Counted from the first letter of the stretch, positions 11,904 to 63,789 are shown. The stretch: 64,000 nt of DNA from a virus (IMGVR_UViG_2703718772_000011), one strand, 5' to 3'. Notes: a model not told the origin generated them from the letters alone. Made by a program: numbers and translations.

Positions 11904-11976
11904 GTATCACCAAATAAAGAGGGCCACTAAATATAGTGGCCCATGTTAATAGATAAGCACTTACCTATCAATGAAA

Positions 11977-18162: not shown

Positions 18163-19218
18163 ATGAGCGAAAACGGCAATAAAAACATAGCGATCGTTGA
18201 AGCATTTTCAGAAACAGATAAAAAGACAGGCGAAGTTGTTACGTTGGTTCCTAACACTAATAACACTGTTCAGCCTGTTGCTTTGATGCGTCTGGGCCTC
18301 TTCGTTCCGACGCTGAAATCGACATCCAGAGGAAGAAAGGGGCAAATGGTCTCTATGGATGCCTCTGCTGAACTCAAACAGCTGTCTCTGGCAAAAGCCG
18401 AAGGGTACGAAGACATAAGGATCTCTGGCCTTCGGCTTGATATGGATAACGACTTTAAAACGTGGGTGGGAATAATCCACGCGTTTGCCAAACACAAGGT
18501 TGTTGGCGATACTGTCACGTTGCCGTTCGTTGAGTTTGTAAGGCTGTGTGGCATTCCGACCGCCAGGTCATCAGCGAAGTTACGCAAACGCCTGGACAGT
18601 TCGCTAAGCCGTATTGCCACAAATACCATCTCGTTCCGTAGCAAAGGCTCTGATGAGTTTTACGTAACGCATCTTGTGCAAACGGCAAAATATAGTGTCA
18701 AGCACGATACGGTCGAACTGAAAGCAGATCCCAAGATTTTCGAACTCTACCAGTTCGACAAAAAGGTTCTTCTGCAACTCCGGGCTATAAACGAACTCTC
18801 AAGAAAAGAATCCGCTCAGGCGCTTTATACTTTTATTGAAAGTTTGCCGCCTGATCCGGCACCAATATCACTAGCCCGTTTACGCGCCAGACTTAATCTG
18901 ACAAGTCGCACTATTACTCAGAATGCGACGGTAAGAAAGGCTATGGAACAGCTGCGAGAGATAGGATATCTCGATTACACGGAAGTTAAGCGCGGAAACT
19001 CGGTCTACTTCGTCATCCACTATAGGCGGCCAAAGTTACGCCAGGCACAAATATCAACAAAAATCGATAATGATGAGACGGAATATAGCCTCCCAGATGA
19101 GAATCAAGATGACATTATCGACGTTGTGCCTGACGAAAAAGAAGGCAAAATGGTCATGTTGAGTAAAGAAGAACTGGCGCTTCTCGAAGAGTTGCGCAAG
19201 GCAAAGACTCGCAAATAG
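18163..19218 (+). CDS. repA: iteron-binding replication initiator (RepA-like)
   Basis: Only plus-strand gene in this region, flanked on both sides by iteron arrays with origin-like elements upstream; P1 oriR-repA-incA-like layout. Assignment by context. Confidence 0.6.
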
Positions 19219-19219
19219 C

Positions 19220-19703
19220 CCAACCACTGTAGTTAGTAGTAAGGCTCACTATCCACTGTAGTGAGCCTTACTTATATCTGTAATTCGCTATCCACTATAG
19301 TGAGTATCGTTATCTGTTGATAACCACTGTAGGCAGTAGAATGCAAATACTGAATTAAATGTTAGTGATCACTAACACTGATGAAACAAGGGCTGCGAGG
19401 TTAGTGGTCACTGGGTATCTTGGAAAATTTACTGTCTATAGTGGTTGTTGTCGCCCTCATCTTTGAGCGTATCCACTGTGGCGAGTGGATATCCACTGAA
19501 AACAGCAAAGGCTTACTCACCATAGTGGATACCCGCTGGACATCTCACTCCAATACTCACCATAGTGGTTGTTTGATGCGAATGAAAGGCTGTCTACTCG
19601 CTACAGTGGTTAGCAGATATGTAGGAAGGTTTTGTTACTGACTACAGTGGATAATGAGCTGGATACGAATGCGGTGAGCAGACTACTCACCGCAGTGGTT
19701 GGT
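19220..19703. repeat. iteron array C: about 12 CCACTRTAG-type iterons in both orientations downstream of the rep gene
   Basis: Direct copies near 19225-19335 and inverted copies (CTAYAGTGG) near 19432-19703. Confidence 0.75.
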
Positions 19704-19707
19704 GCTA

Positions 19708-19920
19708 TTAGTGTATTTTCTTCAACAGACCCCAAAGTGTTCCGGCTTTTGTAGTCAGTTTTCCTGTTTCTGGATCGTACATACGCCATTCACGCCGCTG
19801 GTGGACGATATACCCATCTTCACGTTCCAGACGCTCAAGAATGCCAGGCTGCTTGAAACCCTTAGCACGCCAGTAGCCGCTTGTTTTCTCGATTTCCAGA
19901 CCTGCCAGTGTTAATGCCAT
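19708..19920 (-). CDS. hypothetical protein (70 aa)
   Basis: Small ORF, start overlaps the stop of the upstream gene. Confidence 0.4.
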   Translation of the reverse strand: MALTLAGLEIEKTSGYWRAKGFKQPGILERLEREDGYIVHQRREWRMYDPETGKLTTKAGTLWGLLKKIH

Positions 19921-20255
19921 TATCCAACCTCCTTGCAGTCATCGAAAAGGTAGCTTTGCTGAGAAGCGTGAACGCCATAGAAGCCCTTGTATTTGTTGTA
20001 TACGAAGTGGTCTTCTCCGACGCCGGTTAATTTGCCATTACGATTTGTGAGATATGGGGATGACAACACTCGATCGTCACGCACAACATAGAACTGGTCG
20101 CCGCTGTCTACGACCATCGCTCCATATGGTGCTTTTATGACGTCGGTAAGAGCGCCATTCTTAACGTCGGCTACAGACATTTCACACTGATAAACAGTGG
20201 TGTCGGCCACAACGATCGAAGAAAGGAACAACAGCGCGAATGGGATGGCCTTCAT
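19920..20255 (-). CDS. predicted secreted protein (111 aa)
   Basis: N-terminal signal-peptide-like segment MKAIPFALLFLSSIVVA. Confidence 0.5.
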   Translation of the reverse strand: MKAIPFALLFLSSIVVADTTVYQCEMSVADVKNGALTDVIKAPYGAMVVDSGDQFYVVRDDRVLSSPYLTNRNGKLTGVGEDHFVYNKYKGFYGVHASQQSYLFDDCKEVG

Positions 20256-20431
20256 GCTGCCACCTCTTTGATTACATCAAATGCTGAATTAAATACGAGC
20301 ACGATAGCCAAAGCGTTTATGACTACGTCGTGCACCGGGGAAAAGACTTTACGAATGACACCAGTGAAAATGCAGTCGATGACAAAAGCTATTGAAACGA
20401 TGAGTAACAAGTATTCAATAAAAATCTTCAT
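20252..20431 (-). CDS. small membrane protein (59 aa; below the ORF-track cutoff)
   Basis: Hand translation MKIFIEYLLLIVSIAFVIDC...; two hydrophobic segments; stop overlaps next start as ATGA. Confidence 0.3.
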   Translation of the reverse strand: MKIFIEYLLLIVSIAFVIDCIFTGVIRKVFSPVHDVVINALAIVLVFNSAFDVIKEVAA

Positions 20432-20470
20432 GATAGGTAGATACTAACTTATATAAATTTTACTGTAAAC

Positions 20471-20746
20471 TCACTCAAAAGTGCTGATGCTTAAAATACG
20501 CTCAAGATGTTCGGCATCTTCATCACTGATTTGTTGAGTCTCTTCTACGTACCAACAGTTGCCGTTATGCCAACAAACACCATCATCATCAACCATCACT
20601 GAATCAGCGTCATGACCTGTATATTCAACGAGAATACGCTGGATCAGCGCGTCAGTTTCTTCGTCGTTAAGGCCATCGGCTTTGACCATAAAAAGCGGAA
20701 ACACGTCATAGACAGTGCTGGTAACGATTCGAACTAAAACTCTCAT
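20471..20746 (-). CDS. hypothetical acidic protein (91 aa)
   Basis: ORF preceded by the conserved initiation motif. Confidence 0.5.
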   Translation of the reverse strand: MRVLVRIVTSTVYDVFPLFMVKADGLNDEETDALIQRILVEYTGHDADSVMVDDDGVCWHNGNCWYVEETQQISDEDAEHLERILSISTFE

Positions 20747-20801
20747 GTGTTTTTCCTTTTGTGGTTAGTGTTTACTTATTTTGTTAGTTATGAATAGGCG
20801 A

Positions 20802-21227
20802 TCAATCTTCTTGTTTAGGGAAAAACTGTTCAATAACTCTGTCAACGGCTGTGTCTATATGGAGTAGATGCCACACAACCATATCTTTGCTTCCCATGCC
20901 TTGTGTGAATATCACGTCATACTTACGCCATGCGCAGTGGAACCAATATGCTGAGTCATCAATTGGTAAATCCTCTCCCGCCTCTTTGAAGTATTTCAGC
21001 AGCATTGCCTGCTCTGCCGTTGGCGTTGGACCTATTTCCTGAGCGTACATACGGATGAATCGCTGCCAGTCTGTCTCGTCGGGGGTTGGATCTGGTGGGG
21101 TCATTTCTGCGATAGCGTTTCGTAGCTGATGCGCCCAATCAGGTTCAGGAAAGCCTTTTGCTACTTCATCATCAATAACATCCAGAGCCACGTTTGCGGC
21201 ATCGTAGAGTTTCTTAATAGCTGTCAT
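20802..21227 (-). CDS. hypothetical protein (141 aa)
   Basis: ORF; TTAAACAAATTGTTT palindrome just upstream. Confidence 0.5.
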   Translation of the reverse strand: MTAIKKLYDAANVALDVIDDEVAKGFPEPDWAHQLRNAIAEMTPPDPTPDETDWQRFIRMYAQEIGPTPTAEQAMLLKYFKEAGEDLPIDDSAYWFHCAWRKYDVIFTQGMGSKDMVVWHLLHIDTAVDRVIEQFFPKQED

Positions 21228-21275
21228 GTTTTCTTATCCTTTTAAACAAATTGTTTTCTTAATAAGATAATTGCG

Positions 21276-21301
21276 ATAAAAAAGGCGTCCAACTGGACGC
21301 C
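21276..21301 (-). terminator. rho-independent terminator (ggcgtcc-aact-ggacgcc plus T-run on minus strand)
   Basis: Stem-loop followed by T-run after the SPFH gene; same stem sequence as terminators at 22416 and 26022. Confidence 0.7.
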
Positions 21302-21318
21302 TGAACTTTTTAGGGGAG

Positions 21319-22149
21319 TTATTTCACTGTAATGAAAGGAGTGTTAGCCCCTTGAGTCATGTACTGCGGTAACTGGCCATTCCATTTATTGATGGCTTCC
21401 AGTTCCATAACGTTCGGGTTTTGACGCAGAGCTTCACCGCGCAGACGAATGGCGTCTGCTTCTGCTTGCGCACGAGCACGGATAGCATCAGCTTCACCAT
21501 TAGCCTGTTCACGTAGCATATTCGCCTCAGCTTTACGTTGTTCAACTTCCTGCTGACGTTGCAGAGTACGCTGGTTAGCCGTTACTTTGGCGTTAATAGA
21601 TTCAATGACAGTTTTTGGGTAATCAGGCTTTCCAACCCATGACAGGCTCAGTACCTCAATACCAACCGGAGACATCTCTTTCTGAATATCTTTCAGTGCG
21701 TTGTCCAGCAATTGTGCCTTACCACCGTCGATAAATGAGTCAGTGGTCATACGGCTGGCCAAACGGTTTAGAGAGTCGGCAATTTTCTGACGCAGATCTG
21801 ATTCGGTGATATCGTCTACGCCTTTGCGATAGGTCTGGAACACCGTCGTTACCTTGTCACGATTAACCAGATACGCAACGCCAATTTTGTGACCAATAGC
21901 AGTACCGTCACTCATCTGGAATGTGAACGGCTCGTCGTAGGTCTTCATTTGTTTGAAGGTCGGGAATACGTAAAGTTCGGTGTTAAGACCTGTCCATTGG
22001 CGACCAACGCCAACCACTTCACCAATCCCTTTGTCTTCACCTAATTTGTTTACTTTGATGCCAACGTATCCAGGCTCCACGCGATCACAGCCAGTAAGAC
22101 CCATTGTGCAAATAGCCGCCAGAGCAACTGCAAGTAAACCTTTCTTCAT
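21319..22149 (-). CDS. SPFH/band-7 domain lipoprotein
   Basis: Lipobox LTGC after signal peptide; prohibitin/HflC-like core; C-terminal coiled coil (EADAIRARAQAEADAIR). Confidence 0.7.
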   Translation of the reverse strand: MKKGLLAVALAAICTMGLTGCDRVEPGYVGIKVNKLGEDKGIGEVVGVGRQWTGLNTELYVFPTFKQMKTYDEPFTFQMSDGTAIGHKIGVAYLVNRDKVTTVFQTYRKGVDDITESDLRQKIADSLNRLASRMTTDSFIDGGKAQLLDNALKDIQKEMSPVGIEVLSLSWVGKPDYPKTVIESINAKVTANQRTLQRQQEVEQRKAEANMLREQANGEADAIRARAQAEADAIRLRGEALRQNPNVMELEAINKWNGQLPQYMTQGANTPFITVK

Positions 22150-22152
22150 TAC

Positions 22153-22353
22153 TTATTTCCCCTTTGCTTTGATTAATGAGTTGATAAACTTACGACCAGC
22201 AATAAGACCGATTACAGGAGCACCAAAACCAACGATAACTCCAAACATGACGGCTAAATCACTCTTGGTAGAAATCAGCGACGGAACCAGTAAACCGTAG
22301 ATGAGAGCCACTGAAAGGCCTGTGGCTACTGCCAATAGATAGATTTTGATCAT
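22153..22353 (-). CDS. small membrane protein (66 aa)
   Basis: Two hydrophobic helices; immediately upstream of the SPFH gene. Confidence 0.5.
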   Translation of the reverse strand: MIKIYLLAVATGLSVALIYGLLVPSLISTKSDLAVMFGVIVGFGAPVIGLIAGRKFINSLIKAKGK

Positions 22354-22415
22354 GTGTTTTCCTATGTGGTTGTTATGCGAAAATAATAAGTAAGTACTTA
22401 TATATTTTCAAGAGA

Positions 22416-22440
22416 TAAAAAAGGCGTCCTGTGGACGCCT
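22416..22440 (-). terminator. rho-independent terminator (ggcgtcc-tgt-ggacgcc plus T-run)
   Basis: Directly after the recA-like gene stop. Confidence 0.7.
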
Positions 22441-22445
22441 TGTGT

Positions 22446-24785
22446 TTACTCTTCTACTGACTCGGTGGGGTTGTCTTTTGCTCTTCGGTCGTCGATTGCC
22501 TGCAAAGCCGCAATGATTTCAGCCAGTGGCTTCTCCCGATACATCTCGACGATCTGCGATTTGGTGTATTTCTTGTCACCAATTTCAACTCGCCCGCTGG
22601 CGTTCTTTGGCAGGTATCCTTCTTCCAGCATGTACTCGACGAGCGATTCGATAACGTCGAGGCCACGAGTAGGATCGAAGTAGAATTTCCAGGTGCATTT
22701 GCCATACGGTGGTGCAACTTTGTTTTTGATGCATTCTGCGCCTACGTCCTGGCCGATCTTCTCTTTACCATCCTTCATCACCGATGCACCAAGACGGATA
22801 CGTACAGAAGCGTAGAACTTCGGTGAATCTCCACCTGGCGACGTAGTAGGGTCGCCAAACATTACACCGATTTTTGTGCGAACCTGATTCAAGAAGATGA
22901 TGCAGGCGTTGTATTTGCGTGCCCACAAAGCCAGAGTAGGGAAGTTCGCACTCGTCGCACGAGCCAGTGCCGTATTGTCGTTCATGTTTAGCTGATCTTT
23001 GTCTTTGGCAGTGCCTTCAGCCATCTTTTCGAACTTCTCGGCTTTGGAGTTCGGAACCATAGACGCAAGAGAGTCAGCCACGATACAGATTGGTGCTGAT
23101 TCGGGGATAAGCTCTTCATCACGAACCAATTTAAGTATTGTGCCGATCAACTCTACAGAGTCTTCGAAGGTATCTGGCTGCTTGTATACCCACTGACCGT
23201 CATCCTCATCTGCGTTCAGGCCATTGGCTACAGCCAGGCCAACGTCAAAACTGTTTTCATGATCGAGGAATACCGCCAGACCATCTTGTTTTTGAGCGGA
23301 GATCATCGCTGCTGTTGCAAGGAATGTGTTGTGGCTGATAATCCCGTTAGACCAGAAAGAGTGTGTTTCCGGCATCGCTACGTCGAACGTTGGCGCTTCA
23401 CCTTCCTCAATAGCCACGACTTCGTCGTAGAACAAGTTAGAGCCAATTACCGCTGCCAGTTGTGCAAACAGATGCTCGTTAAAACGATTCTTTCTGCCAA
23501 TGAAGGAGACATAGATTTCTCGCAGTTTGTCTATTCCGACACGATCGCCGCGGCCAATAACGTGGTCTACCAGAGCGTAGTCTTCACGGGTGGTCTTGGT
23601 GAGCGACTCGTAGAGTGATTTCACTAAGCCGCTGATGTGCGGAACATAGCCTGAGTAAGTGCGGTCAAAACCAATGTCCCGTTTGGTTGCCACTGATAAA
23701 CGTGCCGGAGATTCGAAACCAATCGTTGACAGAAAAAGGTCGTAATTAGAGCCACTGAATGACAGCCGGTAATATGTATTTTCATAACCCGCGACGTGTT
23801 TTTCAGAGATAGTTGACGTAATCCCCAGATTCAGGAGCATGAGGCGAATTTGCTGTAGCAGCAGCCCACTCGCGCTCACAACCTCAATGCAGCGACCATC
23901 ATTGACGTGGCATTCCAGCTCAAAGTAGCCGCGAAGGAATGCAATTTGAGCCTCGCTATTGGCGCGACGCACACTCAACGGAACCTGCTTGCCAGCAGCT
24001 TTCTCATACTCCAGACCATATTCTTTAAAAAGCAGCGAACGCACCTCTTTGCTAAACAGCACATGGTCTTCCGAGCCGTTATGTTTTCTCGTAACTGGCA
24101 TCTTGTCTGATACCAGCGAAATGAGGCGGTAGTACTCATCCTTGATGAAAGGATCTGTGTTAGAAAAATTCACTGAATTTTCAGAGGCCACGTATCCGTC
24201 AGCAATTAAATAGCCCATCAGTTTTGCGATATTGGCATCCAGGTGCTGATCGCCGAATTGATGTGTGCCAACCATTGAAGGAATCGTGTCGCCTACACTG
24301 ATTTTTTCAGCATGTCGCCAGACGACATTACCTAAGTCGTCAACCACACGGATTGGGTGACGGAACGTAGCCTCGATATAACCGCCTGATGCCAGCTTAA
24401 TACGCTTGAATTTGCGACGGTTGTTCCATGTCAGGTGTGAGGTCTTCTCTATCACGCCATTTTCATTGATGAGTCCAACGTTATGCTCTACATCGCGAGT
24501 AGTGCATGTCGCTTTGTACCCTTCAATCTCAAACAACTCTTTCACTGTTACCATTCCACGCTCCGTCAGCAGCATGGTGTCTGCGGTAACACATTTCCCC
24601 GCACTTGGAGGACCGAATACTTCGACGATACGACCACATGGGAAGCCGCCATCGTAACGACCAGAAATAGCTTTGTTTAACGGTGGAAAGCCTGTATCAA
24701 TCCAATGAGTTACTTTCTGAATTTCGTCGTTGCTACCGATTTTCTTTTTCAGAGCAAGTGCCAGTGCGGATTTTCCTTTTGCCAT
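22446..24785 (-). CDS. recA: RecA-family recombinase interrupted by an intein
   Basis: Exteins (about 357 aa) align with E. coli RecA (GRIVEVFGPPSAGK / TFLATAAMISAQ..., IIFLNQVRTKIGVMFGDPTTSPGGDSPKFYASVRIRLG). A 422-aa insert splits the Walker A loop. Confidence 0.85.
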   Translation of the reverse strand: MAKGKSALALALKKKIGSNDEIQKVTHWIDTGFPPLNKAISGRYDGGFPCGRIVEVFGPPSAGKCVTADTMLLTERGMVTVKELFEIEGYKATCTTRDVEHNVGLINENGVIEKTSHLTWNNRRKFKRIKLASGGYIEATFRHPIRVVDDLGNVVWRHAEKISVGDTIPSMVGTHQFGDQHLDANIAKLMGYLIADGYVASENSVNFSNTDPFIKDEYYRLISLVSDKMPVTRKHNGSEDHVLFSKEVRSLLFKEYGLEYEKAAGKQVPLSVRRANSEAQIAFLRGYFELECHVNDGRCIEVVSASGLLLQQIRLMLLNLGITSTISEKHVAGYENTYYRLSFSGSNYDLFLSTIGFESPARLSVATKRDIGFDRTYSGYVPHISGLVKSLYESLTKTTREDYALVDHVIGRGDRVGIDKLREIYVSFIGRKNRFNEHLFAQLAAVIGSNLFYDEVVAIEEGEAPTFDVAMPETHSFWSNGIISHNTFLATAAMISAQKQDGLAVFLDHENSFDVGLAVANGLNADEDDGQWVYKQPDTFEDSVELIGTILKLVRDEELIPESAPICIVADSLASMVPNSKAEKFEKMAEGTAKDKDQLNMNDNTALARATSANFPTLALWARKYNACIIFLNQVRTKIGVMFGDPTTSPGGDSPKFYASVRIRLGASVMKDGKEKIGQDVGAECIKNKVAPPYGKCTWKFYFDPTRGLDVIESLVEYMLEEGYLPKNASGRVEIGDKKYTKSQIVEMYREKPLAEIIAALQAIDDRRAKDNPTESVEE
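23328..24593 (-). mobile_element. intein with LAGLIDADG homing-endonuclease domain inside recA P-loop
   Basis: Starts with Cys right after GPPSAGK, ends His-Asn followed by Thr (+1); internal KLMGYLIADGYV and FLRGYFELECHVNDG blocks. Confidence 0.8.
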
Positions 24786-27087: not shown

Positions 27088-27204
27088 GTGTTTCTCCTTG
27101 TTGTGATTTGGCCGATGGCGCTATGCGCGTTGGGCTTTCGTTCATTCGTGGCTCTTTCGAGCTGTTAAATGATAGATCAGTACTTACTTATTATCTATCA
27201 AAAA

Positions 27205-43680: not shown

Positions 43681-43735
43681 AAATAATCTTGTACTTACCT
43701 ATCGTTATTTGCGTAAAAAACGACGCGCGGAGAGA

Positions 43736-56798: not shown

Positions 56799-56891
56799 GT
56801 TGAATATGCTCCTTGATTTGGCGGGCTATCCTTGCCCGCCATTAAGTAATTACTTACCTATTTTTACCGATATAAAATTTTTTTTCCACCA

Positions 56892-63740: not shown

Positions 63741-63789
63741 CCTGTCAGCGCCACAATGATAGTAAATTAGTACTTACTTATCCAGATAC

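Follow-up and report, generated by a model that had tools for sequence, protein, structure and literature searches.

The stretch of DNA analysed here (the window) is 64,000 nucleotides of a virus, IMGVR_UViG_2703718772_000011, and represents a phage-plasmid of the SSU5/pMT1 type. Between positions 21319 and 22353 its minus strand carries two open reading frames (ORFs) in one frame, separated by a TAA stop and a single further codon (Table 1). The upstream ORF encodes a small membrane protein of 66 amino acids, referred to below as the partner, and the downstream ORF encodes a 276-residue lipoprotein of the SPFH/band-7 superfamily; the pair belongs to PHROG 1130 and PHROG 200, respectively. A first-pass annotation of the window had placed here a lipoprotein of the prohibitin/HflC superfamily and a 66-residue two-helix membrane protein, forming a two-gene unit flanked by terminators, and this description is borne out in its essentials by the results presented below.

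Table 1. Features of the SPFH unit and its borders, in coordinates of the window
Feature	Position	Strand	Evidence or description
16-bp direct repeat GATAAAAAAGGCGTCC, left copy	21275..21290	+	Bounds the 1139-bp unit
Downstream intrinsic terminator of the unit	21283..21302	-	Hairpin AGGCGUCC-AGUU-GGACGCCU, then UUUUUU
SPFH/band-7 lipoprotein gene, 276 amino acids	21319..22149	-	Band_7, PHROG 200, AlphaFold model, Foldseek; dN/dS 0.03
Partner gene, 66 amino acids	22153..22353	-	Two transmembrane helices; PHROG 1130; turn motif; dN/dS 0.22
Sigma-70-type promoter of the unit	22383..22411	-	TTGAAA-17 nt-TATTAT, 10/12, best match in 19-26 kb
Operator-like 13-mer ATAAGTAAGTACT	22386..22398	+	Inside the spacer and -10 region of the promoter; the window has six copies
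16-bp direct repeat GATAAAAAAGGCGTCC, right copy	22414..22429	+	Bounds the 1139-bp unit
Upstream intrinsic terminator	22421..22441	-	Hairpin AAGGCGTCC-ACA-GGACGCCUU, then UUUUUU; ends the recA-like gene

The larger protein matches the Pfam family Band_7 (PF01145) with an E-value of 2.6e-30 (106.2 bits at a cut-off of 23.6, residues 23-209) and otherwise just Flot, the latter below the Flot cut-off. It also matches PHROG 200, annotated as 'lipoprotein', at 3e-108. Its N-terminus consists of MKK, a hydrophobic stretch and the lipobox LTGC, in which MKKGLLAVALAAICTMGLTG precedes Cys21, with Asp22 and Arg23 next in line. This signal peptide is followed by the SPFH domain (approximately residues 23-178), a helix of 65 residues (179-243) and a short C-terminal segment. 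The AlphaFold monomer model (predicted local distance difference test score, pLDDT, 77.7) has the same layout, with strands at 20-95 and 164-176, helices at 97-162, the single long helix, and a short C-terminal part; the pLDDT falls below 50 in the C-terminal 12 residues. In Foldseek searches the full-length matches, with E-values of about 1e-12 to 1e-13, are HflC/HflK (7vhq), erlin, prohibitin, stomatin and flotillin. All of these proteins form membrane-attached cages, and the cage-type architecture (SPFH domain, long helix and C-terminal segment) is present in the predicted model of the phage protein.

The phage protein is not an orthologue of any of the named SPFH proteins. Against the NCBIfam equivalog models it scores 30.2 bits for HflC (TIGR01932, cut-off 134.4) and 18.7 bits for HflK (TIGR01933, cut-off 159.4), and thereby fails both. 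The PDB sequence profile ranks prohibitin-2 (7e-8), prohibitin (9e-7), HflC (4e-6), HflK (1e-5) and QmcA (1e-5). Because these stand so close together, the protein represents a separate SPFH branch.

The partner is composed of two hydrophobic helices, a short polar turn between them and a basic C-terminal tail, and its N and C termini are both predicted to be cytoplasmic. It matches PHROG 1130, annotated as 'membrane protein', at 2.1e-25, and no Pfam family at E<=0.1, including the holin, superinfection-immunity and NfeD (PF01957) families. Neither the partner nor the SPFH lipoprotein matches any of the PADLOC defence models. The turn between the helices, predicted to be periplasmic, reads VPSLISTKSD in the window and fits the pattern P-x-[LM]-[IV]-[SN]-x-[KD]-[SD]-[TS]. 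Across 111 distinct partner sequences the Pro of this pattern is kept in 99% and the Ser/Asn in 100%, with [LM] and [IV] between them and [KD], [SD] and [TS] following after one free position. A Gly in helix 2 is conserved in the same set.

In the current dataset, the SPFH protein was detected by tblastn in 413 of 50,697 phage records, and a search of 1.84 billion cluster representatives returned 326 clusters (50% identity) at E<=1e-30. The SPFH module is carried by 291 of the 5,426 complete E. coli genomes, and the gene is conserved across phages of enterobacteria, Pseudomonas, Burkholderia, Leptospira, Caulobacter and Prevotella. Temperate carriers include phiP27, Stx2a phages, P88 and elements of P1 and SSU5 size, and the module is also found in Yersinia pestis pMT1 and in SSU5-type phage-plasmids of Salmonella, Klebsiella and Enterobacter. 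Virulent carriers include the N4-like phages KpCHEMY26, AlfredRasser and Moo19, the rV5-like PVP-SE1 and 4MG, the LUZ24-like TL, the FelixO1-like phiEa104, phiCbK, and Lak and crAss-like phages.

Manual inspection showed a small ORF for a membrane protein, often unannotated, just upstream of the SPFH gene in each phage examined. A hidden Markov model (HMM) built from these hand-found ORFs, and searched in stop-to-stop segments, identified a same-strand partner within the 2.5-kb flank at all 160 IMG/VR loci (80 of 80 close and 80 of 80 distant relatives, representing 84 distinct SPFH sequences); on the opposite strand of these 160 loci there was no HMM match. An NTGA start overlaps the stop of the partner at 104 of 157 loci, which is the usual sign of translational coupling. 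Searching ORFs with the HMM was necessary because the 66-residue query is short and hydrophobic: tblastn with this protein reached SSU5-type relatives only. The partner gene of phiP27 (L003 2316-2504) is absent from the RefSeq annotation. High-GC Burkholderia phages (e.g. L124, partner ending at 2504) have no obvious ATG for the partner; the conserved frame and the motif are present.

The two genes also occur as natural fusions. Among the 150 best 50%-cluster representatives, 16 encode partner and SPFH protein in a single ORF (P0157, P0164, P0165, P0174, P0178, P0181, P0183, P0188, P0194, P0201, P0206, P0209, P0223, P0227, P0247 and P0267), the partner always coming first, followed by a linker, the signal peptide with its lipobox, and the SPFH domain. 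If signal peptidase II processes the internal lipobox, cleavage of such a fusion would yield the same pair of products that the separate genes provide. One further candidate, P0163, has the SPFH part first and the partner second; its normal SPFH C-terminus is replaced, and it is likely a frameshift or read-through artefact and was not counted. A scan of genome contigs says little on the distribution outside phages, the matches listed being mostly coiled-coil-only, and its informative loci are those of Leptospira, Deltaproteobacteria and Caulobacter. A Leptospira chromosome carries the separate pair, and a Deltaproteobacteria contig carries the fused arrangement. On these sequence comparisons, the pair is an ancient and obligately paired phage module, of which the window holds one copy.

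Several observations bear on where the SPFH protein is located. First, among the relatives, 62 of the 71 distinct N-termini scored positive for the lipobox pattern [LVI][ASTVI][GAS]C. Several of the remaining nine were missed by this narrow pattern, and just one subclade is truly Cys-less; its members retain an uncleaved hydrophobic anchor. Second, Asp at position +2, which in E. coli lipoproteins is a signal for retention in the inner membrane, is present without exception in the enterobacterial temperate and N4-like members, and is also kept in Burkholderia phages. Third, the domain order of the fusions only works if the SPFH domain lies outside and the partner has both termini inside. From the +2 Asp, the uncleaved-anchor relatives and the fusion order we infer that the SPFH lipoprotein sits on the periplasmic face of the inner membrane. 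The Arg at +3 in the window protein may weaken this retention.

The gene neighbourhood is informative about timing. The P88 pair belongs to the early operon, with a cox-type gene on one side and replication gene A on the other, and phiP27 has the pair in the leftward operon leading into xis and int. In the N4-like, rV5-like, LUZ24-like, FelixO1-like and phiCbK phages it is found among genes of replication and nucleotide metabolism (polymerase, ligase, dUTPase, exonuclease and the like). Placement in a lysis cassette was never seen in the phages inspected. We infer from these positions that the module is used in the early, replicative phase of infection by virulent and temperate phages alike. 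Both genes are under purifying selection, with ratios of nonsynonymous to synonymous divergence (dN/dS) of 0.03 for the SPFH gene and 0.22 for the partner.

In the window the unit has its own transcription signals. A sigma-70-type promoter lies directly upstream of the 66-residue ORF, which adds to what the first-pass annotation had noted at this locus. The upstream hairpin has a folding energy of -14.7 kcal/mol (z -6.95 relative to shuffles) and the downstream hairpin one of -15.1 kcal/mol (z -4.2), and in neither case does any shuffled sequence fold as well. The annotation had also spoken of terminators of a shared GGCGTCC-stem type. The stem GGCGTCC-N3-4-GGACGCC is indeed common to the two bracketing terminators, and within the 64-kb window it is confined to them (0 expected); since it is absent elsewhere, the 'shared type' consists of these two terminators alone and does not extend to other terminators of the element. 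The promoter is kept in Cyrano, SSU5 and Y. pestis pMT1, even though the partner gene has diverged to 59-73% amino acid identity, and both terminators are kept in these elements as well. Moreover, the upstream stem of pMT1 has undergone a compensatory double change, from GGCGTCC/GGACGCC to GGCGCCC/GGGCGCC (L224, Y. pestis CO92 pMT1, 2565-2685 compared with window 22340-22460), and this supports a functional hairpin.

With no more than one mismatch allowed, the window contains six copies of the 13-mer ATARGTAAGTRCT, where 0.27 are expected: 11956-11968(-), 22386-22398(+), 27179-27191(-), 43690-43702(-), 56849-56861(-) and 63769-63781(-). All six copies are intergenic and lie in promoter regions, just upstream of minus-strand operons. 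In the SPFH unit the orientation is inverted, and the copy overlaps the spacer and the -10 region of the promoter. The 13-mer is probably an operator for a regulator of the phage-plasmid. Its presence in the SPFH promoter suggests control by the element's own regulator rather than constitutive expression.

The region containing the unit is 100% identical to E. coli plasmids, e.g. NZ_CP104844 and pTHO-010-2 (the latter, L226, over 21250-22450 of the window only), and shows identities of 99% to 'Escherichia phage CMS-2020a' and 94% to phage Cyrano. The unit is found about 2 kb from repA, and its neighbours are an intein-containing recA-like gene, dnaE, and genes for an exonuclease and an SSB-like protein. 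In the plasmids pCUPF07B and E. coli D9 plasmid A, which otherwise are nearly identical to the element, precisely the 1139 bp between the two GATAAAAAAGGCGTCC copies are missing; a single terminator remains, and the flanks are joined inside the repeat. SSU5, pMT1 and many Salmonella and Enterobacter relatives carry the unit at the same position, and the empty sites are therefore most simply read as recent deletions between the repeated terminators. There is no compositional sign of recent insertion: the GC content is 0.454 in the unit, 0.449-0.470 in the flanks and 0.462 in the window.

Among SSU5-type alleles, the synonymous divergence is 0.44-0.82 in the unit compared with 0.01-0.09 in the flanks, a 5-50-fold difference. 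Between the window and Cyrano (L001 6120-7154) the SPFH protein is identical with a synonymous divergence (dS) of 0.005, whereas the small gene has a nonsynonymous divergence (dN) of 0.145 and a dS of 0.63, which places a recombination breakpoint between the two genes. In view of the gap between unit and flanks and of this contrast with Cyrano, the unit, and even each gene separately, has been exchanged by recombination.

The surroundings of the unit vary as well. The recA-like recombinase of the window (22446-24785, minus strand) has 779 amino acids, and its relatives are annotated as intein-containing with a LAGLIDADG homing endonuclease; the version in SSU5 and Y. pestis pMT1 has 358 amino acids and no insert. 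Downstream of recA there is a variable spot, occupied by a DUF2591 gene in SSU5, pMT1 and Enterobacter relatives (L011, an Enterobacter plasmid, 1164-1535; L224 1020-1391; L225 3699-4070), with or without the SPFH unit, and by a DUF7238 gene in its place in the E. coli elements. The plasmid pTHO-010-2, of the same phage-plasmid type, carries a chaperone-usher fimbrial operon at 19148-23813 (usher, chaperone, fimbrial subunit and PapB-type regulator).

These features may provide some clues regarding the function of the pair. The lipoprotein would be exported, acylated at Cys21 and held on the periplasmic face of the inner membrane through its +2 Asp, this residue being the reason to expect retention there. 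Its 65-residue helix would then mediate oligomerisation into a cage or dome of the kind formed by HflK/C, prohibitin, erlin and stomatin. The partner, made in step with the lipoprotein through the adjacent or overlapping stop and start codons, would provide in trans the transmembrane hairpins that HflK/C hold in cis, and would contact the cage via its conserved periplasmic turn. Early in infection, the cage and the partner hairpins could together enclose a patch of the inner membrane. The enclosed client is probably a conserved inner-membrane machine, considering that the module is early in both virulent and temperate phages, broadly distributed and strongly conserved. The preferred candidate is the quality-control protease FtsH. 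It is put first because the side of the membrane from which HflK/C and prohibitin face their FtsH-type proteases is the same one, and because phages neutralise host AAA+ proteases early: lambda CIII acts against FtsH and T4 PinA against Lon.

The separate parts of this proposal deserve different degrees of trust. That a lipid-anchored SPFH cage and its partner fence a membrane microdomain, as an early function, seems to us about evenly balanced between right and wrong. FtsH as the specific client is tentative and sooner to be doubted than believed. The most far-reaching reading, in which the pair is a phage-built mimic of HflKC and prohibitin, with a lipid-anchored periplasmic cage and a separate two-helix palisade, that traps or re-programmes FtsH or another universal inner-membrane machine early in infection, is a doubtful one. 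The reported contact of HflK Arg191 with FtsH was considered and dropped, as the construct numbering could not be resolved with confidence when the contact was mapped onto the phage protein.

A number of points weigh against the proposed mechanism. No result computed here ties the pair to FtsH specifically, and the scores for the HflC and HflK equivalogs are far below threshold. The hosts possess HflK/C of their own. The residue at +2 is Glu in rV5-like members that infect E. coli and Salmonella, and Ser in many others; under the E. coli rule these members would not be retained in the inner membrane, and sorting may vary by lineage. The unit's own promoter may allow expression in the carrier state, which would suit a role in host benefit or exclusion. 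Finally, our literature search found no functional study of any member of the family, just annotations and guesses. Papers label the gene simply 'lipoprotein', 'serine protease' or 'SPFH protein'; the guesses on its role are 'possibly inhibiting proteolysis' and 'adsorption or DNA entry', and a 2026 paper says that the reason for the gene in phages 'remains unclear'.

Alternatively, the cage might stabilise the inner membrane and the proton-motive force of the infected cell. The threats to be met would be damage caused as the phage enters, the burden of its membrane proteins, holins triggered too soon and depolarising host effectors of abortive infection. Published work links bacterial SPFH proteins to membrane stress tolerance (HflKC to aminoglycoside and oxidative stress, and YdjI to PspA), and the module is common in large virulent phages, amid other genes for small membrane proteins. 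However, such membrane maintenance leaves unexplained the strictly conserved turn motif of the partner, which suggests a specific protein contact. We regard this explanation as unlikely.

The first-pass annotation had proposed superinfection exclusion or lysis timing as the role of the pair, and neither gains support from the present analysis. General exclusion would mean that the cage and the partner alter or occupy the periplasmic face of the inner membrane and thereby block incoming DNA or ejection proteins, like T4 Imm/Sp or P22 SieA. A predicted periplasmic lipoprotein combined with a small two-helix membrane protein in the size class of T4 Imm would fit this, as would the early gene placement, the unit's own promoter and its gain or loss as a block in this phage-plasmid; in addition, the SPFH gene of a Vi01-like phage adjoins a gene annotated as superinfection exclusion protein. 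On the other hand, the partner falls into no Pfam family, with the immunity and holin families covered, and neither protein has a PADLOC match. Genes for exclusion tend to be narrowly distributed and to evolve fast, in contrast to an SPFH gene under such strong purifying selection and so broadly spread among hosts; conservation across phages of very different hosts is a better fit to a conserved host target than to a receptor-specific exclusion device. Moreover, the P88 and phiP27 operons that hold the pair are repressed in lysogens. On balance we consider exclusion rather unlikely.

A third possibility is that the unit is lysogenic-conversion cargo, a moron that benefits the carrier, e.g. through stress or antibiotic tolerance conferred by an extra HflKC-like complex, and has no part in the phage cycle. 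Like a moron, it has its own promoter and terminator and is present or absent between near-identical genomes, and its carriers include Y. pestis pMT1 and the SSU5-type phage-plasmids, elements that persist in pathogens. However, its base composition is the same as that of its flanks, where a moron would be expected to stand out. Strictly virulent phages, in which a carrier state does not exist, conserve the pair as well, and the promoter contains the operator-like motif found at five other promoters of the element, suggesting control by the phage programme. This role is quite improbable. Lysis timing, with the partner as a class II holin-like or antiholin-like protein restrained or scheduled by the SPFH cage, is more improbable still: the partner is built like a holin (about 60-70 amino acids, two helices, both termini inside, basic C-terminal tail), but it matches no Pfam holin family, the pair lies outside the lysis cassettes of the phages inspected and among early, replication and recombination genes, a near-consensus sigma-70 promoter on a stable plasmid prophage would not suit a lethal pore-former, and natural deletions exist in otherwise near-identical elements.

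Comparison with known systems places the pair in context. The closest parallel is the E. coli HflK/HflC-FtsH complex (7VHP, 7VHQ, 7WI3 and 9CZ2), which shares the SPFH fold, the long helix and the C-terminal segment, provides the best full-length structural matches, at 15-19% sequence identity, and has its SPFH domain on the periplasmic side of the inner membrane, as predicted for the phage protein. HflK/HflC also have a link to phage biology, in that they affect lambda lysogenisation through FtsH, the source of the Hfl name. In contrast, they are anchored by an N-terminal transmembrane helix, whereas the phage protein has a lipid-modified Cys and a cleavable lipoprotein signal, and they form a hetero-pair, whereas the phage unit has a single SPFH gene and presumably forms a homo-oligomer. 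Given the failed equivalog scores and the different anchor, the phage protein is neither HflK nor HflC.

The SPFH-NfeD operons, such as E. coli QmcA-YbbJ (8Z5G), resemble the phage unit in being two-gene operons in which an SPFH protein is paired with a small membrane protein located at the cage, and both systems include examples in which partner and SPFH protein are fused. However, the phage partner is a two-helix hairpin without the NfeD (PF01957) OB-fold domain, so the unit is not an SPFH-NfeD pair; furthermore, QmcA faces the cytoplasm, unlike the phage SPFH protein, which is predicted to be exported. The mitochondrial PHB1/PHB2 cage with the m-AAA protease includes the closest PDB sequences by profile, of similar length (about 272-299 amino acids). 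It faces the trans side of an energy-transducing membrane and cages a protease of the FtsH family. Unlike the phage unit, it is a eukaryotic hetero-oligomer, uses a transmembrane helix as its anchor and lacks a small partner.

Functional analogies come from phages themselves. Lambda CIII, an FtsH inhibitor, and T4 PinA, a Lon inhibitor, are early phage genes directed against a host AAA+ protease, although neither has any sequence or structural relation to the SPFH pair. Lambda cIII lies in the pL operon, the equivalent of the leftward operon that holds the pair in phiP27. T4 Imm/Sp, P22 SieA and T5 Llp are early-expressed small phage membrane proteins or lipoproteins at the envelope; no homology to them was detected with Pfam or PADLOC, and their spread is narrow compared with this broad and conserved module. 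Within the literature searched, the combination of a lipid anchor, periplasmic orientation, a dedicated two-helix partner and carriage by phages has not been described as a system, while the genes are routinely annotated.

The instance in the window appears to be an ordinary member of its family, and it is the family that presents a tractable open problem. SPFH cages (HflK/C, prohibitin, erlin, stomatin and flotillin) are a current topic of structural work, and the bacterial roles of most of them are unclear. The constant two-helix partner, its fusion to the SPFH protein in some lineages and the probable early use make a testable two-component system of what was an annotation. Should FtsH or some other core membrane machine prove to be the client, the function of SPFH cages could be probed with this module as a compact natural tool. 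If the mimic proposal is true, the pair would represent a general host-takeover device common to virulent and temperate phages of many diderm bacteria.

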